Origin: Podarcis cretensis
Lineage: Eukaryota
Assembly: GCA_951804945.1 (NCBI GenBank)
Contig: OX638156.1
Span: forward strand, 10,788,001 to 10,852,000
DNA length: 64,000 bases
Direction: 5' to 3'
Shown here: one piece after another, positions 384-53,583 of the stretch
Layout of the letters: every line of letters begins with the position of its first letter
Position numbering within the stretch: the first letter of the stretch is position 1
Translations under genes and position numbers: made by a program
Notes under the pieces: generated by a model
What the model was told of the DNA's origin: nothing
Seen by the model: only the letters and a program-made list of their open reading frames with translations
Database searches by the model: none

Positions 384-657
384 GAGAGGTACGTAATGTG
401 ACAATTTCCGGCCCCTCTAATGCCAAAGAAAACGATAGTGTCACTTTGAACTGCAGTGCTGCTGGCACCAATGTTTCGTATTACTGGCTGAAGGGAAGCC
501 AGCTGATTGAAGGAGGAGGTCATATCTCTTTAGACAACAACAACCAGAGGCTCATTCTCAACCCAGCCACCAGGAACGATTGAGGGCAACTACACCTGCT
601 TTGGGAACAACAGCTTCTCTGAAAGTTCCAGTGAACCACATTGGCTGCAAATCTTCT
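384..657 (+). CDS. IgC2 A-type exon, unit 1, disrupted (274 nt; 1-nt insertion gives TGA at 581-583)
   Basis: Acceptor ttctttctcaacag, donor t|gtaagt. Reads GAT-T-GAG-GGC where the other copies read GAT-GAG-GCC; sister exons are 273 nt. Confidence 0.75.
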
Positions 658-18600: not shown

Positions 18601-21600
18601 GGCTCAGGTGCCCTTCTGTTATTGACTTGTCTCCCACGGGATATTGCATGGCTCACAGTGTCTCTTCGAATCTAATCAGTCCTCTGTCAATGAAGACCTT
18701 CAAATCAAGATCACCAATGGAATGCACCTTTGGTGGTGTTTTGCTGCCTTGGCAAACTTCTTGTATGTTTTCTGTTCATCTTATTCCCAGGACTCTGTCC
18801 TCTTTCGGATGCATCTCCTGAAACTGTATGAGGATCTTGATGCAACAGCTTACTGCTTCCCTTCGAAGCAATGGTGCTCACAGCCACTTGCTTCACTGTC
18901 TCTCCCTCTGGTGCCTTTTTGCAGCGACTGTAACTTCTATTTAGGACTGTCCACAAATAAAATAAAACAAAAATATCTCTTGTCCGTGGAAATTATCCAT
19001 CTGTCCCCAGTAAGGGCCTTGTTCATCACCTGTCACTCAGCACCTCTTTGGTATCTTTGAGGTCCTCCTTCTTCTTCTGTTGGTGAAAGCAGTCACATGG
19101 CTTTTAAACCACGTTTCTGTCCTCCTTGGAAGATTTCAAGGGAAGAGGGAGATCTTGCAGGCAAACCTGCAACACCCTTCCCTGCATCTGTTCACCATTT
19201 GTTCCTTGATAACCCTCTGCCTCCTCGTTATTCTTTCCTTACAGTGGAGGTTTCTGACGTTACCATTATGGGTCTGTCGGAAGCCATTGAGAACGAGTCA
19301 CTGATTCTGACTTGCACCTCCATTGGCAGCGAGGTCTCTTACTATTGGTTCAGAGGGAATCAGAGCCTGGATGATGGAGGGCATATATATCTGAGTCATG
19401 ATAACCAAAACCTCACAATAAACCCGGTCAGCCGGTCTGATGCAGGTTCCTACACCTGCCTTGGAGTCAACAGAATCAGCAAGAACACCAGTACCCCCTT
19501 CGAACTGACAGTGTTCTGTAAGTGTGGCGCCAATTCTTAGTTCATCCCTTCTAACACCTCCTCCCAGCTTCCCTCTCCCCTGTATGTACCTCCTAAAAAC
19601 TGAATGAGGAATATATCATTCTTTAGTCCCTTGAGCCACCTCTTCAGCCCTTCACCATGATGCCCAACTTGTGATTCTCCTCTGTTTGCTCCAGATGGGC
19701 CTGATGATCCTGTAATCAGCCCCCAAAACAATACTTACCATACGGGATCCAGCCTCAACCTCAGCTGCAGTGCCGACTCCCACCCGCCGCCTCAATACAC
19801 TTGGATTTTTAAAGAGGGAATAATTGGGAACACCTCTGAGCTGTTGATCTCGAATCTGTCTCTCAAGGACACTGGGGATTATACCTGCAGTGCTTTCAAT
19901 GTTGAGACTAATCTCAGCAAAAGTGCAAGCCTCCTTGTTGAGGTGTATGGTAAGTATTTCTTCAGGGAACCCAGCTTGGTGTTTTCCGCCGTGGCACCAA
20001 ATGCCACCAGTTTGTCTGCATTCTCTTTGGGGCAGCTCCCCATGCTGCCCACTGTCTCCTCATCTGTCCTTTCCAATGTCTACATTCATCAAGACTTCCA
20101 TGAATCTCTCAAGGAGAGATCATGCTGGCCTGTAGCTTGCAACTTCCTACACTGGGTGTGGCTGTTACCCTGGATTATACTTGGTTTACGGGAACTTCCT
20201 TTATTTTCTACTCAATTTGCCTGATGCCTGCAGCGAATGGTCAGACAGTACCCAAAAATGAAGCGTTAAATGATGACAAGAATCATGACTGGTGGTAGGG
20301 TGTCGCCGGCGCCGTTTTAATAACATATACACAGCTAACTTGATAGTTGAAACATGCCATGTAGTCTTAACTTGATAACCCAGAGTACTAACTTGGGTAT
20401 ATTATATTCCGTCTACATCTGGGAACGGGGGGTGGGGGAGAGAATCCCATATAATGTTCCTTTGTGTACCATGCTTATTTAGATTAGGAGGTGAGGAACC
20501 TTTCTTCTGTGGAGGCTGAGTTGCTTTTCCTTAGGAGTAATCTGTTGGCACATGGGTGGGTTAAACCACAAAGCCTAGGGCTTGCCGATCAGAAGGTTGG
20601 CGGTTTGAATCCCTGCGACGGGGTGAGCTTCTGTTGCTCAGTCCCTGCTCCTGCCAACTTAGCAGTTCGAAAGCACATCAAAGTGCAGGAATCATAGAAT
20701 CATAGAATCATAGAGTTGGAAGAGACCACAAGGGCCATCGAGTCTAACCCCCTGCCAAGGAAGGTAAACAGCGTTTCCGTGTGCTGCTCTGGTTTGCCAG
20801 AAGCAGCTTAGTCATGCTGGCCACATGACCTGGAAGCTGTCTGCAAACAAACACTGGCTCCCTCGGCCAGTAAAGCGAGATGAGCGCCACAAACCCAGAG
20901 TCGTCTGCGACTGAACCTAAAGGTCAGGGGTCCCTTTACCTTTACCTTTAATCTGTTTGTAGCTGGGGCTGCTCTTTTCTTCCTCCACACACATCGGGCT
21001 GCAGGGGGAGGGACAGCTTGAGCTCAGAGGTCTGAACACTGAGAGCTTTCAAAGCCCCCCCCCTTCCCTCCACATTTCTTCCATTAGCACGATCTCTATT
21101 GGCTCACCACCCACCCCTGTCCTGCCTCCTTCTCTTCCTCTAGGCACACATCCACAAAATTTGGCCGAGGGCCACTTGTCTCCCACCCCAGATCTTTAGC
21201 ATGTAAGTTTCTTATGCAACATAGATCGCACTGGAAGGTTAATGAGATTCTGTTAGCATAGCTTAGTGATGGGACTCTCACTTTGCATTGTGCATTGGAA
21301 TGATCTGCGTTATCCAAACTTCTAGGCCAGGGGTTCCCCAACTGTGGTCTGTGGACCACCCGTGGTCTGCAAGTTTCATTCAGGTGTTCTGCAGCGTGTT
21401 TATGGAAAAACACCATTTGAAAATTGCTGAAGGTTTTAGTGTGGACTCCAAAGCTTTCTCCACTTCTGTGATGAACTGGGAAAGAGTCACTCTGCAGCAT
21501 GTGGAGTGGTTGCTATCAGCCTCAGCTTAATAATAATAATAATAATAATAAAATTTATTTATATCCCACCCTCCCCAGCCGAAGCCGGGCTCAAGGTGGC

Positions 21601-24600
21601 TAACAACAATAAAACAGTACAAAAGTACAGCACAAACAACACTCTAAAATCATTCATTATAAAATTAATTAAATTCAAGCCACTGGCCACCATTGGGCCA
21701 GAGCTCCGCGAAGATTGCCAAGGGAGGGAGTCAGGCTGTGCCCTGGCCAAAGGCCAGGCTGAACAGCTCTGTCTTGCAGGCCCTGCGGAAAGATGTCAAG
21801 TCCCGCAGGGCCCTAGTCTCTTGTGACAGAGTTTTCCACCAGGTCGGAGCCACAGCCGAAAAGGCCCTGGCTCTAGTTGAGGCCAGCCTAACTTCTCTGT
21901 GGCCTGGGACCTTCAAGATGTTTTTATTTGAAGACCGTAAGTTTCTCTGTGGGGCATACCAGGAGAGGCGGTCCCGTAGGTACGAGGGTCCTAGGCCGTG
22001 TAGGGCTTTAAAGGTTAAAAACAGCACCTTAAACCTGTTCCTGTACTCCACCGGGAGCCAGTGCAGCTGGTATAGCACCGGGTGAATGTGATCTCGCAGC
22101 GAAGACCCTGTAAGGGCATTCTGCACCCGCTGGAGTTTCTGGGTCAGTCTCAAGGGCAGCCCCACGTAGAGCAAGTTACAATAATCCAGTCTGGAGGTGA
22201 CCGTCGCGTGGATCACAGTGGCAAGGTCAGGGCGAGAGAGGTAAGGAGCCAACTGCTTAGCTTGGCGGAGATGGAAAAATGCTGCCTTTGTTATAGCTGC
22301 AATCTGCGCCTCCATGGAAAGGGAGGTGTCAAAGATTACACCCAAACTCTTAACGGACGGTGCTGGCACTAATTGCGCCCCCGCAAGAGATGGGAGTTGC
22401 CCCCCCCCAATCCCATATCGTCCCGTCCCAGCCACAGGACCTCTGTCTTCGAAGGATTTAGCTTCAACCGGCTCCCACGTAACCATCCAGCCACAGCTTC
22501 CAAACATCTGATCAGTGTGTCAGGGGCCGACTCAGGATGGCCATCCATCAACAGACAGAGTTGGGTGTCATTGGCATACTGATGGCAACCCAGCCCAAAA
22601 CTCTGGACAAGCTGGGCGAGGTGGCGCATAAAGATGTTGAAAAGCATTGGGGAGAGTATCGCACCCTGAGGTACTCCACACACCAAGGAGTGGTGTGATG
22701 ATAATTCCCCCCCCAAGCGCCACCCTCTGCCCCCGACCAGAGAGAAACGAGCGCAACCATTGAAGGACTGTGCCCTGGATCCCCACTTCGGCAAGGCAGT
22801 GGTCCAGAAGTTCGTGATCGACCATGTCGAAAGCTGCTGACAGATCTAGAAGAATCAGCAGCCCCGACCCGCCTCGATCCAGCTGTCTACGAAGATCATT
22901 TGTTAGGGCAACCAGAGCTGTCTCGGTCCCATGACCAGCGCGGAAGCCGGACTGGAATGGATCCAGAGCCGATGTTTCATCCAGAAACCCACCAAGCTGT
23001 TCAGCAACCGCTCTCTCAATCACCTTACCCAGGAACGGAAGATTCGAAACCGGGCGGTAATTGGATAGATCTAAAGGATCTAATGATGTTTTCTTTAAGA
23101 GCGGGCGCACCACTGCCTCCTTCAGTTCCCCTGGGAATGTCTCCGTGCCAAGGGACAAATTGATAATATCCCCCAGGAGGGCCCGCACCTCGTCTGGACA
23201 CGCTCTAATCAGCCAAGACGGGCACGGGTCGAGAGGACAGGTGGTGGGCTTTCCAGCTCGGAGGAGTCTGTCCACATCGGCTGGGGATATCCGGTCGAAG
23301 TGGTCCAATACTGGACCCGAGGACAGTCGAGGGGCCTCCAGTTCCTTTACTGTATCCAAATTGGCAGGGAGGTCATGGTGGAGCAACAAGATCTTCTCCA
23401 CAAAAAAGCTCGCAAATGCCTCACAGCTGTGTGTCAAATTGTTATTTAAATTTGGCTGTCCTTCAAGGGACGTTAAAGACCTAATTATACTAAATAATTG
23501 TGCCGGGCGAGAGCTAGCGGCGGCAATGGAGGCCGAGAAGTAGGACTTCTTAGCAGCCTTCACCGCCATCTCGTAGGTTTTCATAAAAGCCCTATAAGAT
23601 GTTCTTGAGGCTCCGTCACGGGCACCCCGCCATACTCGCTCTAGCCGTCTGAGGTCCCGCTTCATTTTCCGGAGCTCCTCGGTAAACCAGGGAGCCCGGT
23701 TTCTGCGGGGTTGCAGAGGGCGCTTCGGTGCGATCTCATCGATGGCTGCCAGGAGCTGGATATTCCAGCCCTCAACAAGCTCAGTCAATGAGTCGCCAGG
23801 GGGAGCAAGGTCCCGCAAGGCTTGGCGGAATCTATCTATCAGCTTAGCCTGGTCTCTGTGCAGATCTTGGACTCCAAATACGAATGAGGTGCTGGGATTC
23901 TGGCAGTTTCGGGTGGGGAGGGAAGAAGCACTTTAGAGCATAATAGCATGGAGTACCAGAATAGTAACAGGAAGCAAACGGATCTGAAAAAGATCCAAGC
24001 CCTTGAGAAGACCGGCTCAGTGACTAAGCCAGGTTTAATTCTTTGTTTGTTTGCTGGCAGATCATATGCAACTGTTGCCTTGCCCTTTGGGCAGTGCCAA
24101 CTTGACAGTTTTAAACCAGTGTGAATGGGATTCCTTATCCTTCTCTGCGTCTTCCAAGCATGCATTCAGTGCATAGGAGTTACAAATTCACAAATTTTTC
24201 ATGGTTTTGCATGAACCATACACAAATACGCAACCATTGTATTTGAGATTTCACCTTCTTGGAAATGGCAACCATGATTATCCCCAGTTGGGGGTTCTCC
24301 TATAAAGAGTGCCAGATTGCCAGATTGCAAAGAGTGCCAGATTGCAAAGCTTTTAAAACAGTTTCTATCCCTTACTACTGCAACAATATGTCTGGGAGTT
24401 TTTGGTAGATAGTTGCTGAAATTTCAGAAGCCAGGGAGGTCACTAAATGAATGGTCGCCAATGCCTGGGGTTTGTCCTTACAGAGGAAAACATGAACCAA
24501 GAGATTATGCAGACCAATACAAATGAAAGGCTAAATTGTGCAAATCTGCGAAATAAGTTGAACCTGCGTAATTTCTTTTATGTCACAGAATTCAGGGTTT

Positions 24601-27600
24601 TTTGGAGCAGAATTGGGATTCCCTAGGTAGATGTAGATGTAGATTTGTTTGTTTGTTTGTTTGTTTGTTTGTTTGTTTGTTTGTTTGTTTGTTTTTAAAA
24701 CATGGAGAACACACAGCTCTGATTCTCGGATAACTAATTTATGCAAAGTGATTGTGCGAATGCCTCCTGATAAGTTTCGGTTGGTTACTAGGTTAATGTG
24801 TCACAGCTCTGCTCAGGTTCAGAGAGTCCTGTATCAAGGTCTGCTTCCAACCCCCACCAGCCATTGGGCGTTGAAGTTGTTGCTGGCTGTTTCTCTTGGT
24901 CACATTGTCACATGCCACCCAGAACTGTGAACTGTCATCAGCTCCATTGCTGCTTCCTGGCAGATGAGCTAGGCAAAAGCCTGCTCTTTCACATCTGTTT
25001 GCTCTGTAGAATTTGCAAATCACTTCTTTGTGCTGTCTCAGTCCACTCTTTCACTTGTACCGGTAATTTACCCTCATCTATCCAGCATCCATTGTCTATG
25101 AAAATGTGACATTCCAGGTGTGTTTGTGTCCTCCAGGTTCTTTCCGCATCATGCATCTCAAACACCTTTCTTTAGTTTCAGCATTTCCTTATTATGCCAA
25201 TAAAGCTCAACCCTTGAACTGAGATACAGCTTAGTGCTTTGTTTATCACCCTGGGGGATATCCTGGCTGAGTCATCTCTCTCAGTGATAACAACTCTGTG
25301 TAGTGCATCTGAGGTCTGTTCCTCATCTCTCTTATTCTCCCACCACCACCACCCTTCCACCCCACCTCTGACTTATGCGCTGCCCTCATCAGTATAAAAT
25401 CAGTATATCAGCCTTTCAAACCAATTTACTACTTGTGGTTCCCAGGGACTGTATCCTTGGAATTCTCTGAAAGGGTTCCTAATGAATTCTTCTCGTTTTC
25501 CTCCTAAAATTCAGTTCCCATTGCTCCTCGCTGGCGTCGCTTTGCTTTCTTTTAATTAATTGAATTCATTCCCAAGTCCAAGAAAACCAATTAAACAAGA
25601 GCACCCACACGTGTGATTTAATACAAAAATCAAAAGCATGTCTCTAAATCTGATAAATCCTGCTGCACCACCGGAGGCGTCCCAGGGAACCTTGAGCCAT
25701 GGGGTATTTTACATCTGTTCGTTTCCTCCTCCACTCCTTTTTTTTTTAAAAAAAAAACAAAACTGTTTTAACTACTTATTTATTTTACTTTACTTATAGG
25801 ACGGCTGAGTGCATTATGAAGTGCAGTCGTGGTGAGGAAACCCCAGCCTCTCAACATCTTAATTTCCCAGAGGCATCTCTACATATAAATGAACATATGC
25901 AGATTGCATGCAAATACGTGTCAGGGACCTGCACCCCTGTCCATTCAGTTCCCTAGCAGTGACCCCCCCACACACACACACCACCCAATAAACATCTTGC
26001 CCTTCCTCCTAGTGGTTAGGAGGACTCCTGAATAGGTGTCTCTGCAGCTTCTCCTGCTCTCTTCAAGCAAGCAATGAGAGGAGGTGGCTCACCCTGTCAC
26101 CGTCTTCCCCAATGCAGGTGACCTCCAGATGTTCTGGATTACAGCCCCCATCAACTCCTGCTAACACATCAGTGCTGGCTGGAGCTGATGGTACTTGTAA
26201 TCCCAAACATCTGGAAGGGCACCAGGTTGGGTTAGACTGCTTTGTCTTCTCTTTCTCTCTCTGAGAGGTGATGCCGATTTGGTCCAGGAGAGGAGACAAG
26301 CTAATGGTCAATGGGCAGGTTAAATGGTGCCTGTTCAGGAAGAGGGCCCAGCTAAGAGCATCCTGCCCCAGGACCCTTGGGAACCTCGAAGCATCACTGC
26401 GTGCAGTGCAATTGCACAGCCTCGTGGAAGAACCCTGGGAAAGCTTTCCTGCTTGGTCCTGCAAAGTGCATAAACTTCCCCGACACTTCATTAAAGCACT
26501 TAGCAGCACACGCCCCATATTAACATTCCCTTTACAAAAACCCCACAACACCCTATTATGTGATGCCATCAGCAACTGGTGTCCGACTACTTTTAAATGG
26601 GCAAGGGACGGACACCCGAGATTGAGCACTAATAGGGCTTAAAAGTGACCACAACAACATAGAGGTTGTAAAATAAAATATCAAATCACCTTGTTTTTGT
26701 AAAAAGTCTCTGGGTTATAGCAGTTGCTGGCGCCACTTAATTGTTAATTTCAAAGCATGAGGTCAGTCGCTGTCTCAGCTACTCTCATTTCAAAATTTCA
26801 TTAAATCACAGTTTGCAAATTCCATGTAAATTGCTGCTAAGAAGAGGCCTTTGGAGAGCAGCTGCAGGAAGCTTCTAGCTCACTTGCTTCCTCCTCGAGA
26901 TGTCTTGGCTGGAAATGTTGCCAAAATGTATCTCCTCCAACACACACACACACAAACATACACACACCCTTTCTGTGTGTTCTCTATAATGCAACAGAGA
27001 CAACGGTGCCCAAAACAACCCACGGCCCTAGCAATTCAGTACGTAATCCCTTGAACACTTTCGTATAGCAATCTCGAGCTATGCTTTCAAAAGAAGCAGG
27101 ATTCTGCTTTAAAAGTGACAGGATTTCTGACACACTCCAGGGACAAAGTGCTGCACTTTCCCTAATAACCACACTTGGAGAGACCCTGCCCAGGTTTAGG
27201 ACCCATGAGGACCCACAAAACATGACCCTCTTTCTGTTTTGTGTGCAGAAACCCTCTCCAGTCCAGTCCTGTGGCCTGCAGAAGCCATAGTGGCAGAGAA
27301 CGCAAACGTCTCCTTGCAGTGTAACACCTCCAACAGCCTCGATGTCAACATCACCTGGTTCAAGGACAGTAAACCTGTCCCAGATAAGGCTGTGCTTTTC
27401 AACAGGAACCGAACCCTCACTCTAACTGCCGTCTCCAAAGATGAGGAAGGGATGTATACATGTAAAGCTACCAACCCTGCCAGCAATGCCACAAGCAACC
27501 CCAGTAAGATTAGCTTGGCATGTAAGTAACCCTGGTTTGAAAATGCTTGGTGGCTCCTTTCTCCTTGCCGTTGCTGCATGCATTTGGCAGGGAGGGCATT

Positions 27601-30163
27601 TGTGAGTCCTAATGGGGATTTCCTCTCTCCCTTGATCTCCCCACCCCTGGTCTTTCTGAAATAAGGGGTGCTGGCGCTTGAATCATACTTGGAGGCTAAG
27701 AGCCCCCTATTCCCTAACCCTGATGTGTGGAAGTAGCTTGTGGGGAGGTGGGAAAAGTACTCTGCAAATGCTAGCAGATGCTGTCTCCTTTATTAATAAA
27801 GGCCTGCCTTCTAAAGCTAAGCCATTGAAAATGCCTTCGGAGAACTGAACCCCAGTGAACACTTTCTCATATTAACCCCTAAAGCTGGTTGGCCAGCTCT
27901 CTTGCTGCGTTTTGGGGTGGTGCACACACACGGAGGCAGGTGTGTGTACGGACGTGGGTGGCACTGTGGGTTAAACCACAGAGCCTAGGACAGAAGGTCG
28001 GCAGTTCGAATCCCCGCGACGGGGTAAGCTCCTGTTGCTCGGTCCCTTCTCCTGCCAACCTAGCAGTTCGAAAGCACCTCAAAGTGCAAGTAGATAAATA
28101 GGTACCGCTCCAGCGGGAAGGTAAACGGGGTTTCTGTGCGCTGCTCTGGTTCGCCAGAAGTGGCTTAGTCATGCTGGCCACATGACCCGGAAGCTGTACG
28201 CCGGCTCCCTCGGCCAGTAAAGCAAGATGAGCTCCGCAACCCCAGAGTCGGGCGCAGCTGGACCTAATGGTCAGGGTTCCCTTTACCTTTACCTTTACCT
28301 TTACACACAGGGGGGCAGGACGACACAAACGCACCTCACCCCTGTTTCCACCCGTTGGTCCTGATTCTACTTGCTTTCCTTTCTAGATGGGCCAAATAAC
28401 GTTAAGCTGAACCAAACAGGAACCATAACTCTAAAACTAGGTTCCCGTTTGGCTCTGCTGTGTACTGCAGAGTCCCTACCCGAACCCCAGTTTCGGTGGT
28501 TTTTCAATCATACTAATATGAATGTGACGGCGAGCACCTTCAACACAGCCTTAACAGCCTGGGAAGATGGAGGCAATTACACCTGCCAGGCTTACAACAG
28601 CGTCGTTAAGAAGCTGGCCTCAGCATCTGTCAATGTGAAATTGACAACGCAGGGTGAGTCCCTTGACAAGCCCACATTTGTCTCTTGTCCCACCAGCATT
28701 TTGAATGTCCCACAGTCTCCCCCTGGACCTGATTATTTGGAAATGTGGCCAATCCGAGTGGAATTAATAGAGGAGGACGCAACTCACTGTTTTTGCGAGC
28801 AGAAAAGGGTGGTATCTAAAGTCAGCTGCACCAAGATCTCATTGAAACCAGTTGAGTGAGTTCATCCTGACAACTCCCCGTGATCTCAGTGGAACTAGGT
28901 GGAACTGGATCCAACCCAAAGGTCTTGTTTAGGCTTCCCCTTGCTCCTGCGCCTTTCATTATTTAAAAAAACATATACCCTGCCTTTCTAGGCGAGATGG
29001 CTACGCAGGACTATTAACAGTGTCACAAAATAAAACACGACAAGCAAGATAAGATATAATCAAACAATAAACTGCGTTAAAAAAATTAAACTTTAACTAC
29101 AGCCTGAAAAACGTAATAGCTTCGGTTTCCCCCACCCTGCATTGTTGCAGCTCTTTACTAGCAAAAGCTTCACCTGCTGGGTTTCTGGGTGTCCAACTGC
29201 AGTTTAAAGGCACAGATTACGCAGGCCCAGGGTTAAGAAACAGAAGAGGCAGACCTTGTTATCTATTCTTGCAGCTGAATGCTAGGAAAAAACTTTGTGG
29301 CAAATTTCTGTAGTCTTTAGAATTGAGGGTTTTATGCAGCGATATGTTTTCTTTTGGAGAAGGAATGATGATCCGGAGATGCGTGGACATTGGTTTAGAA
29401 GCTGTTCAGAAGTACAAAAATGATACAGGTTGCTTAGGCATCGTAGAAGGGGTGCAGCAAGTGCAAGCCATGGGTTTTTTTATGCTTCTCATGGGGCTGC
29501 CCATGTTGCTTTATACACCTGGTCTTCCCACATTCTAAATCCCATAGGGAGCCCACATGGGTAGAAAGGGCTGCTGCTCCAGAAGTTGTCTTTCCACACA
29601 GGAGGAGCCACAGGTCATCCGGAATGGAGCCTCCACCCTTTGTATCTGTGTTGCCCCTGTGCATGTGATGTGTGAAGAGACCTACTGGTTTGCACGGTAC
29701 AGAGCTATTCTCTGTGCTGCAGCCTGAGAACCCCATTTCTTGTGGTGGTTCTGGTTTGCTGGTTTGCTTGCTTAGGCATGGCGTGAATTTGTTAATATTG
29801 ACTCACTACCAACCCCCTGGTTACAGGAACAAATTTAGACGTTTGTTAATTTTCGTCTTGGTTCTCGGCATTCGAAAAGTCCTGCAGCTTCCTCTTACGT
29901 GCATCAGACCTAAATGCGACAAAACCTCTCAGCTTAGAGCTGCAAATTTGAAGCAAATAAGAAACGGCCTTTAAGATGCAGAAAGATTGGAAACCTAAGT
30001 GTAATATAAGCAGCTGTATATTGCTTTTTATTAGATATTGTTATTTTTATTAAATCGTTTTTTGTGATTGTGTTTTTAGCGATTGTAAGTTTTTAAACTG
30101 TATCTAATGTTGTATTTTAAATTGTTGTAACCCGCCCTGGGATTGTAGGGTGAAGGGCAGATA

Positions 30164-30206
<43 letters not shown>

Positions 30207-33200
30207 GTCATAGAATAATATGAACCAGAAACAGATTCCCGTCTTCTCCTGTGAGTGTGCATCAGAGGGCTCCAAAATCATTTGACTGTGGTGTGTTTCA
30301 CACGGAATGCTAAGCCAAAATATGACTAAGTATTAATGAGCAAGCGTGTGGGTTGCTCAACACTAGGGTTGCCATATTTCAAGAGTTGTTGAGCTTTTTT
30401 TTTGGCAATGTCCAGGAAATTCCAGACATATGGCAACCCTACTCAACACTATCTAGAGCTAAGCCTTGGTTTGTCATAGCACATGGTCCATGACTTGTCT
30501 TCCTCTAACAAACCACAAGCTGTAAGCCAAGAGCAAACCTTGGCTACAGCCCATGGTTGGTTTGGAGTGAGACAAACCATCAGCCCAGGTACACACAAAC
30601 CATGACTTAGCTCCTGGTAGGAGAGCAGCAGCGGGGCTAGGGAGGGGGTAGCCATCACCAACTTGAATAACCTCTGAGTAGATATGGTTAGGGACTGCAC
30701 TGTTAGTTTCAATTTACAAAGCCCTATAGAGCTTGGGATGAGGATATTTGCAGCACTTCCTCCTCCCGAATAGGCTGCTCATGTCACTATGGCCTAAAGA
30801 TGGGAACCCCCTAACCATATCAGACCTTTATGAAGGTTACATTCATAAGAGTCGACACGACCTTTTCTGTTGTGGCTCCTACCGTGTGGACTGCTCACTC
30901 TCCCTATTAGGCCAGCCTGGCTGCTTTTGCCAGCCGTTAAAGATCTGTCTCTTTGCCCTGGCCTTGCCTGACCTCTAGTACTTGGCTGATTATTCCGGTT
31001 TTGTTGAATCCCATAAGGTTTCTGGGTTGTGAACCATTTTGCTATTATGGCAAATGAAAAGTGCTGTAGAATTTTAAAAAAATTAATCCAAAGACCATCA
31101 CTTGTGAGGAAAGGTGATATGAAGTGAAAGCTTGAGAAGCCTCTCTGCACCCACACCACATATAAACTTGGGGTAAAGCTGCCTCCTCTTTTTTCACTCC
31201 TGCCCCTTTGCTTTGTTAACAGTAGTCAGACCATACAGAAAACAAGCTGGTGAAGTTTTCCCCACCACCACTTACCTCCATGCCATTAAAAAGTTCACTG
31301 TCTGAATTTCTGTTCGTCAGAGTGACGTTGAAGGCACAGGAGCTAGGGACGCTAAAATAAACAAACAGATGGCAACCTTGGCTAGAGGTCCCAAAAGACT
31401 GATTTAGTAAAGGGAAAGGGGCATTGCGGTCATAGTTGCTTTTCTTTGGGGGGGGAGGAAACTTCTGCATATCAACCTAAGCATGTTGTGCTTCCTTTTC
31501 CTGGTTATTTGGCTATAACTTTTGACAGAATACAGATAATTGAACAAACTTTGTTGCATTACACTCTTCATTAAATTATCTTTCCATTGTTATATAATTT
31601 TATGGTATTACTCTCCCCCCCAAAAAAAATATGGTGTTATGAGACATCTCATCTCAGAAATATACTTTTCCCAAAAGGTTTCCATAATTTTGGCCACTAG
31701 TGTATACTCTACTTTCCAAAGTTCACGATTCCTCTTGTTCCCCTCTTCCAGAATCAACTCCATCAGGTTCGGGTCTCAGTCCAGGACAAATTGTTGGAAT
31801 TGTCATAGGTTGTGTGCTTGGAGTAGCACTCATTGGAGGTCTGGGCTATTTCCTGTTCACCAAGACTGCCTTGGGGTAAGTTTGCCATCTCGTTCATCTT
31901 GGATTGGGGTTCCCCATTTGCCATCTGAATTTGCCATCTCCCAGCTTCTCCAGGACCTTCCTGCTCTATTTACCTGGTTTGATTGGTCTCTCTGCTCACG
32001 CTCGGGGTTTGAGGCTGTCTCAGGGGTGCGGGTTTCTTTCCTGTCTCTCCAGCCTGGGTCGGGGCCCTGTCTTACACATCCCTTGGAAGAACCAAGTGTG
32101 CCCTGCTGTTCATGCCTCCCAGCCAAAGCACTGACACTAACCTGGGTTGCCAGAATCAAGATAGGGCAGGGGAAGAAACTTCTGCTTTTCTGCAAAGAAC
32201 TTGAATAAGTTGCAGCTGCTGAAATTCCCCGCTTCTTTATAGCCTGTCAAAAGACACAGAAGGCCTGCCCTCTGTTGAATCTGGTGACTCCAAAAGCACA
32301 CACATTTCATTTATTGATTTATAAAGCAATTTATTTATTATAACAAATATGTGTATACTGCTGCAATATAACAAATATATCAAAGCGGTGTACAGCAATA
32401 AAAGCATAAAATCATACAGTGAAACCACTAAAAGCGTTTAAAAAGTTTAAAACACACATATGGAGCGAATGGATAATTATGATTGGATGAACCCTTTTTA
32501 AAAAAGTGTTAAGTCTTACGCATTGTTTATGACATGTTTAGGCAACAATATTAAGTATGGACCTGCCAAACTTTCAGCTATCAGGGACCCTGAAAAGTCA
32601 AATGCATATATAAGTGGGGAGATTGTAAGGGGTGGGGTAGGATGATGATAGTGCCAAAATTTCAAAGATTGACAGTGTTCACGGGAGGAGAAAATTCGTC
32701 TCCTGAACTCAGAACAGACGTATAAAGGTCGGGGTGTGTGTCTGAAAGACAGAGAGACTGGGTGGGGGGGTGGTCTTCAGATCATCTCCAATACTTGCCA
32801 ATGAAGCCATAAGCAATGGAAGACAAAACAAGGCTAGCCCATGGCTACTGGTTTTTGCTCATAACCACATAGGGGTGTGCCCTAGGCCTATTCTCAGTTC
32901 ACACAGGGAAACAGCGAGGCCCCCCAAGGCCTTGCCAGTGCCCTTTTATTACCAGTTGAGGACCCTTCAACTCTGTAGATGTTGATGGACTACAACTTGC
33001 ATCATCCCTGACTAGTGGCCCTGTTAGCTGGGAATCATGGGAGATGTAGTCCAGCAGCATCTGAAGGGCCGGAGGTTGCCCATGAACTGAGTGCGCTCTT
33101 TAGAACGTGTCCCAGAATTCCCTGCAATTTACTGGGGTTTCCTTTGCTGGCACACGAGGGTTCCCTTTGCAAACAGGTCAATACGGGGAAGGTTCCGTCA

Positions 33201-36200
33201 GTGTAGAAAGTTTGGAAACCACCACTGGTGTGGCCAAGGGCAAGATAAAAATTGGATGGATGACAATGTGGCACAAAGAAAGCGAATGAGATTTATTATT
33301 TCACGTGACTGATCACTAGTATAGGACGAGGGGTAATGTGCTGGTTCTGTTGTTGGGGGAGAGACCCCCTGCTTGCTATAGGATCAAACAGTGTCTGCTG
33401 TTTACCTAGGAGGACGGAACAACACTCATCTAATGGAAACATACCCTCAGCTCCCGGCCGCAGTAAGTATCAGCCCAACGGGCTGGGCCGGGGTCTGTGT
33501 GACGCATGTTGTGTGCTCTATGTTACTCTCCCCGGCCACCATCACCCCATTTAGGCTGAGCCTTTATAGTTCACGAAGAAGGTAGATGGCCTTCCCGTAC
33601 ACTTCTGTGCCAAAGCATGGGCAAGTAGGACCACTCCATCCCCAACCCAGATGCATCATGGGAAACTCCTGCTTAATCCGTTTCATGGGAGCAGGGAGAA
33701 AGGACTTCACAGCTGCTCCAGCTCCCATTTCCAAGAGACTGGCTGGGGGAATCTCTTCCCTGACCCCTCCTGGGGAGGGGAAAGGAAGCTGCTGTTTTCT
33801 GTGGAGTGTGGGTATCTTCCTGTCTGCTGTCGCCCTCTCCGCCCACCCCACAAAAACCCTCCATCGTCTTTTTGGGATTCCTGCTGTGGCTCTGTAGCCA
33901 GCCTGGTGGTGGAATAGCTCACGAGAGGGGACTTGCAGGAGGTGATGGGGCTCGCCAGACTGGTCTCTCCAGAGAACGGCTATCTCTGCCCTCTGCACCG
34001 CCTCCGTAATTTTCCTGGAATCAAGTCTATCCAAGACCGTTCTTTGCCTGCCTCTTTAATCATGCTTGGGCTTCGGTGCGAAGCAAGGAACGGAAGTGAA
34101 GAATTGAGGGGTGAGGGTGGAAGCAGGTGGCTCCCTTCCTCTACTCCCTACATTGGCCTTGGAGTGCTCAGGTGGACTCAGCACAGGTAGGAAGATGCAG
34201 CAGGTGGGGCTGGAGCAAGGGGGAAGGGTGTGAGGTGGGGGAAAGACTGGAGTGAGGAGGGGACGGTCTACATGCACACACACATCCCCTCTCCTGTCCC
34301 ACCTGTCCAGCTGATGGACCATTACCTTGCTCACCTTTGGTCCCCACCCTGCATTCAGCTCTCACCTGGGGCTCCTAGAAGCTGTCAGCAGGCGACAGCA
34401 ACCACACCCTGGAAACGGCTTCAACTGGCCGGCTAAACCAGGTGAGGATAGCCAATGGGTCTCACACCCTCAGTGAGCTAGGGACTTTCCCCTGCATGCG
34501 AAGACAGACTCTGGCAGATGGAGCAGACGAGATCAAAAGCAGGTCCAACAGTGAAGAAGGCAGATGGGGCCCATCCATCTGGGATGGGAGACCATCTAGG
34601 AGAAGGAAAACTCTGATCCTAAACCTCTGCTGCCTTGTGGGATATCTTCAGGAGAAGAACAGACTCAGGAATAAACCCTACACAAATTCGGAGTGGAGTC
34701 CCTAAAACGGTTGGCGTTGTATGCCTCCTTCTGGCAACTCCTGCAGCCCAGGCACCTTCATTGCTTACCACATTACTAATCCAGCTCACGCCATTTGTCC
34801 TGTCTGCTTCCGCTAATCCAGTGGGAGTCCCCGCCCCACTGTGGTCCAAGGGCAGAGGGTTGTGGGTTTTCAGTGTCTCCTGCTTGGCTCCCGTGGGCTT
34901 GTGTTCAGGCTCTGTCTGTTGTACCTGCCAGTTCCCTGATACTCTCTCTCTGTCCTGTCTCTGTCATTTCAGACCAGGGCGTCACTGACACCAAACCCAC
35001 ACCGGTAAGGACGGAATCATGATATTGAAGTCCGTATCATGATAATTGGTTTCATAATTTTTGACCTGGCAATATCTTGCAAATCATGATGTGTGTGTGT
35101 GTGTGTGTGCGTGCTATCCAAAAATCACAATGTGGGGGAAACCGTGAAGCCAGCCAATGCCTCAACATAGCTCCACCCTTATTTCAGACATTGTGATATA
35201 TCGGTACATTGCGATGTTTAGCTGGTGATATATCACAGTGCTGAAAACCAGATATCGCCCAGTCCTAGAGGGGTCTGGGGGCTTCCTGAGCCCATTCCCA
35301 ATCCTGGAACAAGGAAGCAGCCCCAACTCTTTGACCTGCTAACAGCAGCTTCATCTGCAGAACGTAGCAATGTGACAATGACTCAAGTTCTTGATGGGGA
35401 CAAGATGTTTGGATTGCCTTGATGGTGGCAAACTGCCCTTCATTAGAGATGTCCAGGCAGAATCTGTACGGGTCCGCGTAGCATAGATGCTGTAGTAGTG
35501 GATTTCTTGCATCAGCAGGTCGTGTGATGGACGACCCCCGAGGCCCCTTCCAAATTTTCAGAAGCATTATCATGCTTAACAAACAATCTGCCTCTCCCCA
35601 TCCTTGTGATCTGGTCACTTGGTATCCTAGCCCTAATGTTCCAGGATTCTGGCCTGAGAGGTGAGTGGACTTTGGTGCCCAAACAGCCAAACTACCCTGG
35701 GGATGTCTTGCTTGCTCCAGGGTAAGTGAGGTAAGTCTGTACAATCTGCTGGTCAACGTAGAGTTTAATTTTACCACGCTTCTAGCACCTCCGAGGGAAT
35801 TAGATGTATCTCTCTCAGAGCAGGAGGAGAGGGCTCCCTAAAGGGGAACTAGGAGCTTGTTGCTAGGAGATTCATAAGCTTCTCTTTGGCCTCCACCTCA
35901 CCTGTTTGGAACGGCCTCCCCCAGGAGGTGGTGGACTCTCCTTCCTTGGAGGTTGGGTGGTCATCTGTCAAGGATGGTTTAGCTGACATTCCTGCATTAC
36001 AGGACCCTTGAGGTCCCTTCCGATTCTACAATTCTGAGATTCCCTCATCACATGCAAGGAGAATCGCCACCTTTTAAAATGGACCTGCTCATGTGCAGTG
36101 GGTAAGGGGCTTGGGGCTCAGGTGGTGCTGGCTAAAGGCTTAGCCACACTTACCTTTTGCCGTTCTCTTTCCAGGCGCAGGTCCACACTTTAAAATTCCG

Positions 36201-37029
36201 AGTCTGAGAGCTCCTCTTTCTTTTGCCCTGGAGCTTTCCCAGCAAAATCTAACTATTTGAAGCTGAAGCGCAACGAATGGCCATTCAAGTTTTCTGTAGG
36301 TTGCCATTTGCTCCAATTCAGCTTTAAAGAGCAGGTTCTTGTGCAGAAAGCTATGGATTAAAAAAAAAATAAAAGGATGCTTGGACAGAGAGCTTTAGAG
36401 TGTGGACCGTTCCTGGAAAGCATGGAGGAAAAGTTAAGTGTGGATAAGCTGTAAGTGTTGGCCAACAGAGGAGGAAGACCAGAGCAAAACAGCCAGAAGC
36501 AAAATACAGAGAACCTAGTAAGCTTAAAAGTAATCTTAATTGCGCAGATTGTTGAATTCCAAAGAAATGAAATGTGTTTCAAAATTTCAAAATAAGAATT
36601 TAATTCTTGGCTGTTACCCTGGTACTTTTGCACTCGCTGGCTGGATCACTGGAAGTTTGATGTTTCCTGAGTAACAGATTGATTATCGATTGCATGCTTT
36701 TCCTTATAACCTTGCAAGTGAAAAGGCCTGCGCCTCATTGTGTGTTGCTGTTTGCTTTTCTTAATTCCAATGAAAGCTGGAGATTCAGGGAAGGGCCTTT
36801 CAAGATCCCAGGAGGGGCTGCTCCCCCCACAGGCCCACCTGTGGCAAGGGCCCTGCCTTCAAACCTTCCTTTGCTCCCTCTGACTCCTTCTGATGGTCTC
36901 TTGCAGGGTGAAGAGGACATACAATATTCAACACTAGCCTTCAAGGCCAACCACCCTCCTCAGCCACAGCCAGCGGCCGCCCGGCCTTTGGAAAGCAACA
37001 TAATATACTCAGAAATCAAGAAGAAATGA
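384..37029 (+). CDS. CEACAM1-like: CEACAM1-like inhibitory Ig-superfamily receptor, 5'-incomplete, 22 exons in window (18 IgC2 + TM + 3 cytoplasmic)
   Basis: Spliced by hand. All junctions are GT-AG and phase compatible. A/B junctions give the CEACAM-typical F/L-Y-GP(D) motif. TM reads GLSPGQIVGIVIGCVLGVALIGGLGYFLF; tail ends IQYSTL...IIYSEIKKK*. Strict orthology to CEACAM1 is not established. Confidence 0.9.
1671..1931 (+). CDS. IgC2 B-type exon, unit 1 (261 nt)
   Basis: tttgcttcag|ac...ctgg|gtgagt; GPDNPTIDPQ...LSCSAKSNPPASYSW...DAGKYTCNA. Confidence 0.92.
2825..3097 (+). CDS. IgC2 A-type exon, unit 2 (273 nt)
   Basis: cag|ga...ttct|gtaagt; VTLNC...YYWLK...DEANYTC. Confidence 0.92.
4178..4438 (+). 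CDS. IgC2 B-type exon, unit 2 (261 nt)
   Basis: gcttcag|at...ctgg|gtgagt; open frame with both Ig cysteines. Confidence 0.92.
5336..5608 (+). CDS. IgC2 A-type exon, unit 3 (273 nt)
   Basis: Same splice sites and open frame as unit 2. Confidence 0.92.
6686..6946 (+). CDS. IgC2 B-type exon, unit 3 (261 nt)
   Basis: tacttcag|ac...g|gtgagt; open frame. Confidence 0.92.
7849..8121 (+). CDS. IgC2 A-type exon, unit 4 (273 nt)
   Basis: cag|ga...t|gtaagt; open frame. Confidence 0.92.
9141..9401 (+). CDS. IgC2 B-type exon, unit 4 (261 nt)
   Basis: tacttcag|ac...g|gtgagt; open frame. Confidence 0.92.
10301..10573 (+). CDS. IgC2 A-type exon, unit 5 (273 nt; VTWNC variant)
   Basis: cag|ga...t|gtaagt; open frame. 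Confidence 0.92.
11655..11915 (+). CDS. IgC2 B-type exon, unit 5 (261 nt)
   Basis: tacttcag|ac...g|gtgagt; open frame. Confidence 0.92.
12816..13088 (+). CDS. IgC2 A-type exon, unit 6 (273 nt)
   Basis: cag|ga...t|gtaagt; open frame. Confidence 0.92.
14169..14429 (+). CDS. IgC2 B-type exon, unit 6 (261 nt)
   Basis: tgcttcag|ac...g|gtgagt; open frame. Confidence 0.92.
15595..15864 (+). CDS. IgC2 A-type exon 7 (270 nt, diverged)
   Basis: Long pyrimidine tract then tacag|ga; YVTNITISDSGKAIENSITVLNCTSAGTNVSYSW...DSDSYSC...LLNVL; t|gtaagt. Confidence 0.92.
16170..16545 (-). mobile_element. L2-clade LINE 3' fragment
   Basis: (TAA)n tail then ttatttataccccacc...gggtttccccagccactc; same family as 62686-63048. 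Confidence 0.65.
16734..16978 (+). mobile_element. Old tRNA-derived SINE (Squam3/Ther1-like)
   Basis: tRNA-like head with ggttcaaattc B box, ctgggtgacttt core, AAAT-rich tail. Confidence 0.65.
18125..18385 (+). CDS. IgC2 B-type exon 7 (261 nt, diverged)
   Basis: actccag|at; GPGVPEI...LSCTADSNPAAQYTW...SGNYTCKAFN; g|gtaagt. Confidence 0.92.
19245..19517 (+). CDS. IgC2 A-type exon 8 (273 nt)
   Basis: ttccttacag|tg; EVSDVTI...LTCTS...YYWFR...DAGSYTC...ELTVF; t|gtaagt. Confidence 0.92.
19695..19949 (+). CDS. IgC2 B-type exon 8 (255 nt)
   Basis: gctccag|at; GPDDPVISP...LSCSADSHPPPQYTW...DTGDYTCSAFN...VEVY; g|gtaagt. Confidence 0.92.
20553..20949 (+). mobile_element. Sauria SINE with an internal CR1-type 3' fragment at 20689-20759
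   Basis: gggttaaaccac...agcagttcgaaagcac...(acctt t)n tail. Confidence 0.85.
21530..23838 (-). mobile_element. 5'-truncated L2-clade LINE with frameshifted reverse transcriptase
   Basis: Three overlapping minus ORFs: NYRPVSNLPFLGKVIE, FQSGFR, LLDLSAAFD, GVPQGAILSP, YANDTQL, SRLDYCN, LHWLPV. (TAA)n tail; candidate 8-bp TSD tcagctta at 21522-21529 and 23839-23846. Confidence 0.9.
24645..24693. repeat. (TTTG)n microsatellite
   Basis: Read directly. Confidence 0.95.
27249..27521 (+). CDS. IgC2 A-type exon 9 (273 nt, most divergent)
   Basis: gtgtgcag|aa; TLSSPVL...VSLQC...ITWFKD...DEEGMYTCKATNPAS; t|gtaagt. Confidence 0.92.
27950..28302 (+). mobile_element. Sauria SINE
   Basis: Near full length, (accttt)n tail. 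Confidence 0.88.
28387..28653 (+). CDS. IgC2 B-type exon 9, membrane proximal (267 nt)
   Basis: ctttctag|at; GPNNVKL...LLCTAESLPEPQFRW...DGGNYTCQAYN; g|gtgagt. Confidence 0.9.
30162..30206. repeat. (ATT)n microsatellite, tail of a degraded L2-type fragment
   Basis: Read directly. Confidence 0.85.
30364..30441. mobile_element. 78-bp hAT-type MITE
   Basis: TIR tagggttgccata/tatggcaacccta; perfect 8-bp TSD ctcaacac. Confidence 0.8.
31752..31875 (+). CDS. Transmembrane exon (124 nt, phase 1/2)
   Basis: ctcttccag|aa; ESTPSGSGLSPGQIVGIVIGCVLGVALIGGLGYFLFTKTALG; gg|gtaagt. Resembles human CEACAM1 GLSPGAIAGIVIGV. Missed by the ORF track. Confidence 0.92.
33410..33462 (+). CDS. Cytoplasmic exon 1 (53 nt, phase 2/1)
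   Basis: tttacctag|g ... a|gtaagt; RTEQHSSNGNIPSAPGR; same length as CEACAM1 exon 7. Confidence 0.85.
34973..35004 (+). CDS. Cytoplasmic exon 2 (32 nt, phase 1/0)
   Basis: tgtcatttcag|ac ... ccg|gtaagg; NQGVTDTKPTP; same length as CEACAM1 exon 8. Confidence 0.85.
36907..37029 (+). CDS. Terminal cytoplasmic exon with two ITIM-type motifs and stop
   Basis: tcttgcag|ggt; GEEDIQYSTLAFKANHPPQPQPAAARPLESNIIYSEIKKK*. Confidence 0.93.
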   Translation, partial: GEEDIQYSTLAFKANHPPQPQPAAARPLESNIIYSEIKKK

Positions 37030-37182
37030 CCAGAGATGAATCTCCCCTAATGGGCTCACCAGTGCAAACATCCCCTATGACTCACCTCTGCTTCATTTGC
37101 CTGGATTTTATTTTGGTTGGGGGGGGGGGGGTTAAAAAAAACTATTGCCTGTTCTGAAGATAAGACTATCGGTCCCTCCCTT

Positions 37183-37211
37183 ACACACACACACACACAC
37201 ACACACACACC
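37183..37211. repeat. (CA)n microsatellite in the presumptive 3' UTR
   Basis: Read directly. Confidence 0.9.
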
Positions 37212-39683
37212 ACTCAAATGGTTCTCCTCTACCAACCCGCCGTGATGAAAACAAAAAAAGCAGAAGTTTGTCTCCACGCCCTGCCACCTGCTGTAATTGA
37301 GGGTAGAGTTTGGAATGGAACCAATCCTTTCAAAAGCAGGCCGTTCTTCCACCCACCCTGCCGTGGCTGTCATGCATGCCAAGAGGGAGGCCTTTTCATC
37401 CTCGGATCTGTGTGGGGAGAAACTAGAAACATTTTAGATACCTCTTTTCCCTTTCTCTCTCTCTCTCTCCCCATCCTGCTACCGTTTCGCTTCCTGGCTG
37501 TGCCAAACCTCCCCTCTTTCTCCTGTCCCTCGGGTTGTGGTGTCGCTAGGCAGCGGTGTGGCTGCTGCTCCCCCAGGCCTACCCCAGACACCACAAGCCC
37601 TCCCTGAGGGAGCTGGATTCCAGGCACCGGCGAAGAAAGAGCTCAATATCCAGGAAAGAGTGCACTGGGAAGCAGGCTGGTGTGGCAGCTGTGTCCAGGG
37701 CCAGCCTGGACCGGAGAGGACCTTTGCTCCTGATGCCTCCATCTGACTCCAGATGCTTCTGAGCTTATTCTTTTTTGAGGAGGCATAAAAACTTGCTTGG
37801 GGGTCAGGCCAGACCTGTGGACCCCTCTTACTGTCCAGAATGAACTGGCAAAATCTCAACAAGACAGCAACACCACTTGCCCTGCAGTCTGGCTTTTGGC
37901 TTCAGCTATTCTTTTGCTCATGTGAATTTGAAAGTGTGGATATGGAACTCGGGGTGACGTGTGGGTGGGAGGGGGGGATTTGTGGTGGCAAAGCCATAAT
38001 TATTTCCCCTCTGCCTGGTAAGGCCACCAGTCATTATGCCTTCTCCACCACCACCACTCCATTTATCATGATTAACCCGCCAAATCCAGTCTATAATAGG
38101 AGGAAGGTGTTTTTGCAGAGCAGATTGGTTAAGCACATCAGGCTGCTATAGAACATGGGGTGAGTTGAAGCATCTTGAATAGATTCCCTTCCATGTTTCT
38201 CCATCTACGTGGTGTCTAGAAATGGAAGAGAACTGTGCCAAATGTCTGGAGGCTTAGAGCACTGGATAGGGGTTAGGAAGCCACCACTTGTGGAAGAGGA
38301 AGAGATCCAATGTCTCCCCGTGTCCCCTGGGCGACCGCAGAGCCAGTGGGCAAAGCACTGGGGTCAGTTGCAAGAACTGTGACGCTCACTGAGCAGCCTT
38401 GAGCAAGTTAACCACCCCTCAGACTAACCTCCTTTGCAGAATTGTTGTGGGGCTACAGTGAGATAAGGCTATAACAATAATAATGCCTCAAGCCAGCAGG
38501 AGGGGGGGGAGATGGGGTCTCAGGAGATTAATTTATTTTAATTGCAGGTGTAGAATCAGGGACAGCGGGGTCTGCATTCTAGATTAGCTCAACTCCCACG
38601 CGGCAAAAAAATGTCTCAGAACGGGCAGGCGAACTGCAAAATTCAACGAAGTGTGGCGAGGAAGAACGGAGGAGGGCGCTTTACAGCGAGCAGTTGTCCG
38701 TTTTGCCGGTTTCGCAACTAGCCAGCTTCTAGCTAATGGGGCAGACATGCCGGGCACTGTTGATGTTAGCCTGAGCCAAAGGCAGACCTCGTAAAATCTC
38801 TGATAGGAACGAGAGGGGAATCCCATGCCTTCTGCTCCCTCGTCGTGTTGTTTGGGTGTGCGTTTTCCTCCACCACCACCCCACGCCGAAAGTTTGTCAT
38901 CTTCGACTGAGAGTGCGCCTTTGCTGCGATAGCATCTCATATACTCTGGGCCTCGCTAATCGTTGGGTGTGGCTGAAAGACGGCATGTATTCACGTTAAG
39001 CTTCAGGACGGAAGGACAATGGAGCAGTGTTTGGAACAAGTGCAGGGCTCATCATGCCCCAGTTAACCCATGCGTCGTTCTCCCATCTTGAGGCACAGTC
39101 GTCTGCCATGAAGGAACCCCCACAAAAGAAAGCTTGTCTCCCTCTTGCATCCGGTTGGCACCGGGCCTTTGGAATGATTACTTGGTGTCCTGCGGGACAG
39201 GAGAAGCAGAGAAGGCCGGTCAGATCTGAGCAAGAGTGCAGAATTAGAGATGGAACGCAAAGCTGATGATTGTGGAAATTTGGGCTGTTATTCTGGTTGT
39301 AAAATGATGAATAATTTTGTTTTTAATAATAACGATAATAATAAATTGAGAATGGAAAAGACTTTTGTGTACATTGTGGAGGGGGAGGCAGGGCTGGCCG
39401 CCCGTGAGGCAAGGATACCCAGCGGCAACAGATCCAGCCTCCAAGGAATGTATCACCCGCTGTTACTGCTCCAGCTGCAGCACACCCCAAATTCAGTGGC
39501 CTCTTAGAGAACAGGAGGTGCTGCCAGTCTCCTTCCCTATGCTTGTTCCTGATGAAGGTCTTTATTCCCACCTTGTTCCTGATGTAGATCTTCACTCACC
39601 CTTCTTCCCTGGCCGGGGAAGGGGCACCATTTTGTGGTTTGCCTCAGGTGCCAAAATGTACTGTTGTAGCCCTGGGGGGGGGC

Positions 39684-53371: not shown

Positions 53372-53419
<48 letters not shown>

Positions 53420-53481
53420 TTATTATTTATACCCTGCCCATCTGTCTGGGCCTCCCCAGCCACTCTGGGCGGCTTCCATAG
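53372..53481 (-). mobile_element. L2-type 3' tail with (TAA)n
   Basis: Matches the tails at 16170 and 62686. Confidence 0.7.
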
Positions 53482-53583
53482 AAACCAAATAGTCTTGATA
53501 GCACAAGGATGGAAGAATGAGGAAGTCCCAACAGAAGAACAGTGGCAAGAAAAAAGGGGGGGAAATAACGTACTGTATGTGAT

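Follow-up and report, generated by a model that had tools for sequence, protein, structure and literature searches.

We analyzed a 64,000-nucleotide stretch of the Podarcis cretensis genome (contig OX638156.1 of assembly GCA_951804945.1, positions 10,788,001 to 10,852,000; referred to here as the window), which contains the 3' end of a lacertid, Podarcis-like CEACAM1 gene on the forward strand. CEACAM1 is an inhibitory immune receptor, the long-to-short ratio of which matters in cancer, liver, and inflammation. We delineated 18 IgC-like exons in nine A/B pairs (384..28653) on the basis of 17 open exons, a tblastn map, and the raw sequence. Six of the A/B pairs recur at a spacing of approximately 2.5 kb, and the first A exon (from 384) has a frameshift near 580. 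No leader or N exon was found within the 64-kb window, and these exons presumably lie upstream of it. Synteny with LIPE and BCL3/TOMM40 is expected of CEACAM1; visual inspection of the 20 listed ORFs between positions 39400 and 64000 revealed no recognizable flanking gene.

The Ig exons are followed by a transmembrane (TM) exon and three cytoplasmic exons (Cyt1 to Cyt3), and all four have canonical borders. The TM exon (31752..31875; 124 nt) runs from phase 1 to phase 2, and read-through of its donor yields a Gly codon and then an immediate TAA. Cyt1 (33410..33462) is a 53-nt cassette exon of 17 whole codons that ends in phase 1 and corresponds to mammalian exon 7, while Cyt2 (34973..35004; 32 nt), the counterpart of exon 8, has a two-frame reading and ends in phase 0. 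The Cyt1 acceptor had 11 pyrimidines in 17 positions, which was the lowest value of the eight exons listed (others, 12 to 16), although this measure is too crude to be read further. The coding part of Cyt3 (36907..37029) ends with the long-form stop (37027-37029), and its sequence contains two ITIMs, i.e., IQYSTL (36919..36936) and IIYSEI (37000..37017). The 3' UTR likely spans approximately 2.3 kb (37030..39345) and ends near an AATAAA at 39340. Contig pieces from three of the public sources considered below end at 39335 (X22), 39327 (X1), and 39323 (X6), a weak hint of the 3' UTR end. No joint inside the putative 3' UTR was present among the 15 joints listed of 44.

With Cyt1 included, the frame remains open into a 68-residue tail with both ITIMs. 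Because Cyt2 opens in phase 1 and the TM exon closes in phase 2, a direct TM-to-Cyt2 junction moves translation into a frame offset by one base, where a TGA is encountered at Cyt2 codons 4/5 (34986..34988), composed of the last base of codon 4 (ACT) and the two leading bases of codon 5 (GAC). The tail then reads PGRH, the ITIMs are lost, and the stop lies 16 nt before the last junction. A second TGA in the short-form frame is located at the start of Cyt3 (36909..36911), and the corresponding site is where a Mauremys short isoform without the Cyt2 stop terminates. A preliminary description of this locus had proposed the 53-nt and 32-nt exons, an open frame through to the ITIM exon when the former is included, and a PGRH product without ITIMs, stopping at 34986-34988, when it is skipped; the exon coordinates proved exact, and translation bore out both products.

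The tail aligns column by column with mammal-like CEACAM1-type tails, and three cytoplasmic exons after the TM exon, beginning with one of 53 bp, are as expected of CEACAM1. The final cytoplasmic exon carries two ITIMs that fit the consensus given in a preprint on reptile CEACAM1 (Zimmermann and Kammerer, June 2026; PMC13278318). The top four PDB matches of P0021, a near-identical full-length homologue, were CEA, CEACAM1, and CEACAM6 (E values, 2e-96 to 4e-45). The last Ig exon was 94% identical to that of P. muralis, and a second Podarcis protein matched the window at 97.6% in the TM exon and 100% in Cyt3. The lacertid RefSeq/GenBank entries (P. muralis XP_077788339-352, "hemicentin-1-like"; Zootoca CEACAM1, XP_034973283-285) are automatic models, and the name of the P. 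muralis gene hides its identity as CEACAM1. Hemicentin was rejected because the top PDB matches belong to the CEA family and the gene has a TM exon and an ITIM tail. CEACAM20, weighed for its many IgC domains, was rejected because the tail aligns to CEACAM1-type tails and because no CEACAM20 was found in reptiles in PMC13278318.

All three introns of the long form were present as GT..AG joints in public contigs. The TM exon was spliced to Cyt1 in X22, X1, and X4 (the only joint of the tail in X1), and the joint 35004>36907 was present in X22 and X4. X22 represents one run of unrecorded type, and the data are contigs without tissue labels, not raw reads. None of the runs listed was recorded as RNA, which was weighed neither for nor against the switch. 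With contig matching at a likeness of 85, the joint table was crowded by repeat matches, and 15 of 44 joints were listed. The skip joint 31875>34973 was not among these 15; with 29 joints outside the listing, it is neither seen nor excluded, and the evidence for skipping in this species is thus indirect. In X22, the contig containing TM, Cyt1, and Cyt2 spans 31846 to 35002, and its successor begins at 34973. Of seven simulated graphs, only that consisting of the long plus the short form reproduced all three X22 contig ends. For the contig ends in X4, the long form plus unspliced transcripts sufficed, without a short arm, and X6 had no cover of the tail exons, so its blank was left uncounted. 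The difference between X22 and X4 is only a hint regarding regulation.

Short isoforms are also annotated in other amniotes, although most of them are gene-model predictions for which read support is not visible. Of 26 lacertid proteins, 4 carry the PGRH tail (they come from P. muralis, a second Podarcis species, and Zootoca and include XP_077788345.1 and XP_034973285.1), as does an Anolis sagrei protein (XP_067317346.1), and one Logan-assembled protein ends in PGRY. Turtle short forms (Trachemys, Malaclemys, Chrysemys, and Lepidochelys) and isoform X2 of Panthera uncia likewise end four residues past the junction; the human short tail, as quoted in the preliminary description, presumably extends five residues past the junction codon. 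The skip-form count leaves out four turtle models (P0184, P0196, P0200, and P0258) whose last residue is that of the junction and which may reflect donor read-through or truncated models. Two-frame decoding gave a single solution in each of seven long/short pairs. In six of them, the stop fell at xxT|GAy in Cyt2 codons 4/5 (codon 4: ACT, GGT, TGT, or TCT), and Panthera isoform X2 and this lizard share the codon pair at which the stop lies. Among 43 hand-picked amniote long tails, codon 5 encoded Asp or Glu in 42, and in 23 nonsquamate rows it was the most constant Cyt2 column (22/23 versus 14/23 for the predominant residue in the runner-up column). A Cyt1 peptide of 17 residues was present in all 40 squamate long forms. 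The same shifted Cyt2 reading in lizard, turtle, and Panthera short forms, with this shared stop, supports the earlier proposal that the switch is older than the mammal-sauropsid split.

Conservation of the 53- and 32-nt lengths and of the alternative-frame stop across sauropsids is not universal. The stop is shared by lizards and turtles, whereas the lengths vary; Cyt1 has 16 whole codons in turtles and approximately 13 in tuatara, and snake Cyt2 is one codon shorter. One Mauremys copy is without the Cyt2 stop, and in python the short form terminates right at the junction. Owls also differ, with a short tail in none of eight cluster members and no stop possible in the skip frame across 38 decoded codons. 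The alligator is without the Cyt2 Asp. The short-tail peptide varies as well (PGRH, PGCR, SGRL, SGPL, and none in python), and the conserved feature is ITIM loss, not any particular peptide.

Taken together, we consider it quite probable that the 3' end of this lacertid CEACAM1 yields a two-ITIM tail when the 53-nt exon is included and a four-residue, ITIM-less tail when it is skipped; this lizard likely uses the switch, which likely goes back to the ancestor shared by mammals and reptiles. The short mRNA would be stable, with its stop less than 50 nt from the last junction, and the long form would recruit SHP-1/2 via its ITIMs as in mammals. The long:short ratio may then set inhibitory output by cell type.

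A second squamate route, skipping both small exons, is annotated in Podarcis, Zootoca, Varanus, and Pantherophis. In the window, translation of TM joined to Cyt3 gives the tail VKRTYNIQH, closed by a TAG at 36935..36937. The Cyt3 third codon positions shared with this lizard numbered 10/10 in Zootoca, 10/10 in Varanus, and 9/10 in Pantherophis. The probability of 10/10 is 0.006 to 0.20 at identities of 0.6 to 0.85, i.e., for a neutral background that was assumed, not measured, and we treat it as a lead only. A tentative and somewhat doubtful extension is that the tail exons have been under two-frame selection for an off state for >300 million years. The Cyt2 Asp codon and the preceding T would be kept for the short-form TGA, and squamates would have added a conserved double-skip route that reads the ITIM exon in a third frame, with third positions nearly frozen; in owls the stop would have disappeared, and annotated isoforms skip the TM exon instead.

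How much the stop proves in a single genome bears on a less favored explanation, in which the short form is splicing noise, i.e., low-level skipping of small exons with automatic NMD escape, recorded by annotation pipelines and neither regulated nor selected. Synonymous recoding produced a skip-frame stop by chance with a probability of 0.43 and base shuffling with one of 0.14; of 631 same-frame windows taken from the Ig exons of this gene, 364 contain a stop. A stop thus occurs in 14 to 58% of null trials, and its presence in one genome proves little. The short mRNA had also been argued to escape NMD under the 50-nt rule; the 16-nt distance is correct, but any stop in a 32-nt penultimate exon lies within 28 nt of the last junction, whatever its position, so that escape is automatic and uninformative. 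The Cyt2 stop and NMD escape, each alone, are weak arguments for a switch. Annotation of all three possible frameshifting skips in P. muralis, the variable short-tail peptide, the owls without a skip-frame stop, and X4 without a short arm are also compatible with noise. Against it, both forms were reported from rattlesnake transcript assemblies in PMC13278318, and the alternative arm in X22 survived contig simplification (depth, 13.4 for the long arm versus 23.7 downstream, a poor measure). Moreover, cat, turtles, and lizards share one stop position, at which the codon 4 residue changes while its third base stays T. We regard noise as unlikely.

Cyt1 contains ACAC at nt 13 and ACAT at nt 30 to 33, and the latter, which we take to be an hnRNP L-type word, speaks against the least probable explanation, namely, that the exon layout is ancestral while regulated skipping arose separately in mammals and reptiles, the phases 2/1/0 giving an ITIM-less product for free. 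The stop position shared by squamate, turtle, and mammal short forms also argues against it, and one origin with later losses is favored because fewer events are needed. On the other side, the human hnRNP L silencer CACA, mapped at exon nt 29 to 32 (PMC11646291), is missing (nt 29 to 32 are AACA, and no CACA is present anywhere in the exon), the squamate columns read NGNIPS instead of the TEHKxS motif of the mammalian tail (PMC2832619), mouse and human short tails differ in function (PMC11646291), and the birds sampled are without the stop. The CACA silencer is a detail of the human mechanism and does not define the gene.

The architecture found here is like that of reptile CEACAM1 in PMC13278318 (N, A/B pairs, TM, and Cyt1 to Cyt3 with ITIM/ITSM), which also describes an Ig expansion in the wall lizard; 16 IgC exons were counted there in P. 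muralis, in comparison with 18 in the window, one of them frameshifted. It is also like mammalian CEACAM1-L/CEACAM1-S (PMC11646291, PMC2490704) in its 53-bp cassette exon, frameshift, proximal TGA, and loss of two ITIMs. It differs from mammalian CEACAM1 in a far longer ectodomain, a Cyt1 without TEHKxS and the CACA at nt 29 to 32, and the short tail PGRH. The reptile switch is not new. Long and short forms that differ in whether the 53-bp Cyt1 is retained or skipped were already reported for Crotalus viridis in PMC13278318, the main text of which covers splicing in this one snake and leaves aside where the stop lies, turtles, and how old the switch is. Given this preprint and the RefSeq models, the gain is confirmation, with some added detail on where the short form stops. 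Our searches found no published account of the common stop site, of short forms in turtles, or of the squamate double-skip route (the supplements of PMC13278318 and PMC5112662 were outside the scope).

If the switch dates to the amniote ancestor, the ITIM-less form would be an old, kept state of the receptor. The value of the short form would then lie in the absence of ITIMs and not in its peptide, which differs by lineage and is absent in python.

The transmembrane exon (TM; 31752-31875), a 53-nt exon (Cyt1; 33410-33462), and a 32-nt exon (Cyt2; 34973-35004) lie on the forward strand with AG/GT borders throughout, as the preliminary description had placed them, and are followed on the same strand by a last exon (Cyt3; start, 36907) encoding two ITIMs (IQYSTL and IIYSEI) before a stop codon at 37027-37029. 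Translation of these exons with Cyt1 included (long form) gave a tail of 68 residues. Skipping Cyt1 (short form) gave PGRH followed by TGA at 34986-34988, 16 nt 5' of the last junction, which confirmed the skip product proposed earlier. Skipping Cyt2 or both small exons (double skip; TM joined to Cyt3) also shifted the frame and removed the ITIMs. Read-through of the TM donor (31873-31879) would add Gly and an immediate TAA, giving another tailless form; the same residue ends four turtle models, and a rat CEACAM1 variant is described that includes the intron after exon 6 (PMC11646291).

Judged by its sequence, the gene is a lacertid CEACAM1. Its last Ig exon shared 94% identity with proteins of Podarcis muralis that are annotated as "hemicentin-1-like," and the closest solved relatives of a near-identical full-length homologue were CEA, CEACAM1, and CEACAM6. 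The last Ig domain was only 81 to 85% identical to those of Lacerta (81%) and Zootoca CEACAM1 (85%), unlike the Cyt1 and Cyt2 peptides (33410-35004), which were identical in Podarcis, Zootoca, and Lacerta (proteins P0005 and P0022). Upstream of TM, 17 open and 1 frameshifted IgC-type exons were arranged as A/B pairs, six of which recur, near-identical, at a spacing of about 2.5 kb (384-14429); no N exon was found within the 64-kb window. The 18 IgC exons of the window compare with 6 in the models for Zootoca and a second Podarcis species and with 16 given for the wall lizard P. muralis in a preprint on CEACAM1 in more than 100 reptiles (Zimmermann and Kammerer, June 2026; PMC13278318). The tandem A/B array is recent and probably variable. 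Its first A exon is frameshifted (about 575-590) relative to the five sister copies, through either an assembly error or the death of that copy. Three ORF fragments (41770-42177, 53321-54045, and 55701-56051) resemble what we take to be a Bov-B-type LINE.

The skip-frame stop in Cyt2 is, by itself, within chance expectation: recoding the exon synonymously produced such a stop in 43% of trials and shuffling its bases did so in 14%, and among 631 windows drawn in the same frame from the Ig exons of this gene, 364 contained one. A penultimate exon of 32 nt cannot hold a stop more than 28 nt from the last junction, so this distance is uninformative as an argument for escape from NMD.

Assembled contigs of four public sequencing runs (X1, X4, X6, and X22) were compared with the window. 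All three long-form introns were seen as GT..AG joints, and the skip joint (31875>34973) was absent among the best 15 of 44 joints (weakest listed depth, 11.6). Run X22, which has the same organism code as the best-matching runs, had zero depth in unique intron bins and, without a recorded run type, behaves like spliced RNA. Its TM-Cyt1 and Cyt1-Cyt2 joints (depth of 13.4 for both) are read as a single contig spanning 31846-35002; the one after it began at 34973 (depth, 23.7). Contig ends were compared with simulated 31-mer graphs under seven models, of which only long plus short forms gave all three X22 ends; under unspliced RNA or double skipping, the arm would start at 31847. Run X4, in which introns were covered, had ends at 31847, 33438, 33433, 35002, and 34976, as simulated for long plus unspliced RNA without a short arm. 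Run X1 contained the TM-Cyt1 joint only, at low depth, and the exons were not covered in X6. Thus, one of the four runs (X22) indirectly supports the short form, and X4 counts against it within its sample. In X4, intronic sequence on either side of Cyt1 and Cyt2 (33463-34972) had depths of 12 to 22 versus 68 to 94 at spliced joints and represents either retained introns or pre-mRNA.

Among the 26 lacertid proteins listed (one cluster being represented by 15 of its 22 members), 17 had long tails, 4 ended in PGRH (P. muralis, the second Podarcis species, and Zootoca), 4 ended in the double-skip tail VKRTYNIQH, and 1 had the Cyt2-skip ending. Long tails were found in 23 of 26 further squamate proteins, in which Varanus X5 and Pantherophis X2 had the double-skip tail and Python X2 terminated at the junction; we infer that the Trp junction codon of snakes and the first Cyt2 base form TGA in python. 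The Cyt1 peptide had 17 residues in all 40 squamate long forms, and Cyt2 was one residue shorter in snakes. A profile of 12 squamate tails matched 119 proteins, adding PGRH in Anolis sagrei X2 and PGRY in a Logan-assembled protein. A turtle query retrieved 107 additional proteins (29 with a CEACAM1-like TM), with short tails in Trachemys, Malaclemys, and Chrysemys (SGRL), Lepidochelys (PGCR), Mauremys (11 residues), and Panthera uncia X2 (SGPL). Four further models ending at the junction residue were set aside and not counted as short forms. Most short forms in relatives are automatic gene models, a kind of model that generally draws on aligned reads.

The second ITIM-less tail, VK[RK]TYNIQH (31875 joined to 36907), has been annotated for Podarcis, Zootoca, Varanus, and Pantherophis (proteins P0004, P0006, P0009, P0011, P0050, and P0051). 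As a tentative lead, the tails of Zootoca, Varanus, and Pantherophis imply that, of 10 third codon positions at the Cyt3 start, 10, 10, and 9, respectively, agree with the window. In three of five Varanus komodoensis isoforms (P0039, P0047, and P0048), 23 additional residues are inserted in frame where the Cyt2 peptide meets that of Cyt3, through either alternative splice-site use or an additional exon.

Each short tail was decoded against a long tail in two frames, with a single solution in all seven pairs (two cross species within a genus, and the turtle pairs may be paralogues). The skip removed 17 whole codons in lizards and Panthera and 16 in turtles. In six of the seven pairs, the stop fell at Cyt2 codons 4/5, codon 4 being ACT, GGT, TGT, or TCT; the Mauremys copy lacked Asp and stopped at the Cyt3 start, matching a window TGA near the start of Cyt3 in the short-form frame (36909-36911). 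When 48 long tails chosen by hand were aligned, Asp or Glu occupied Cyt2 codon 5 in 42 of 43 amniote rows, the mammal-like rows being mostly assigned through a TEHKxS-like motif, and in 1 of 5 rows judged non-amniote (including Xenopus) and excluded from that count. The alligator lacked this Asp. In two owls, TM-skipping isoforms fix the codons and make a skip-frame stop impossible over 38 codons; none of eight owl proteins had a short tail. The annotated TM-skipping isoforms of Strix owls (P0169 and P0171), with the tail read out of frame, are predicted soluble CEACAM1. On the conservation of lengths and stop in other sauropsids, posed as a check in the preliminary description, Cyt1 was shorter in turtles (16 whole codons) and tuatara (about 13) and Cyt2 was one codon shorter in snakes; the stop position recurred in lizards and most turtle pairs and differed in python, the Mauremys copy, and owls. 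On these alignments, the stop position is not universal, with alligator and owls counting against universality.

The core of the switch is already reported and annotated: PMC13278318 describes long and short transcripts of a rattlesnake (Crotalus viridis) that include or lack the 53-bp Cyt1 exon. Apart from that preprint, the searched literature (main texts, with few subscription journals) yielded no treatment of how the short form evolved. Candidate additions not found in print are the stop position apparently common to cat, turtles, and lizards and a putative squamate double-skip route. The proposal that the switch is older than the mammal-sauropsid split is probably right.

The TM-Cyt2 phase mismatch, read with its stop directly from the exons, removes both ITIMs, and the short mRNA would be stable; as a weak hint from the contigs, the last exon seems unspliced through to AATAAA at 39340. 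By analogy with mammals, the long form may recruit SHP and cell type may control the long:short ratio (PMC2490704 and PMC11646291). The window gene has neither the CACA silencer known from human (PMC11646291) nor a TEHKxS motif (PMC2832619). Short-tail partners already differ between mouse and human (PMC11646291). Because reptile short tails range from none to 11 residues, the kept function of the short form is most likely its lack of ITIMs.
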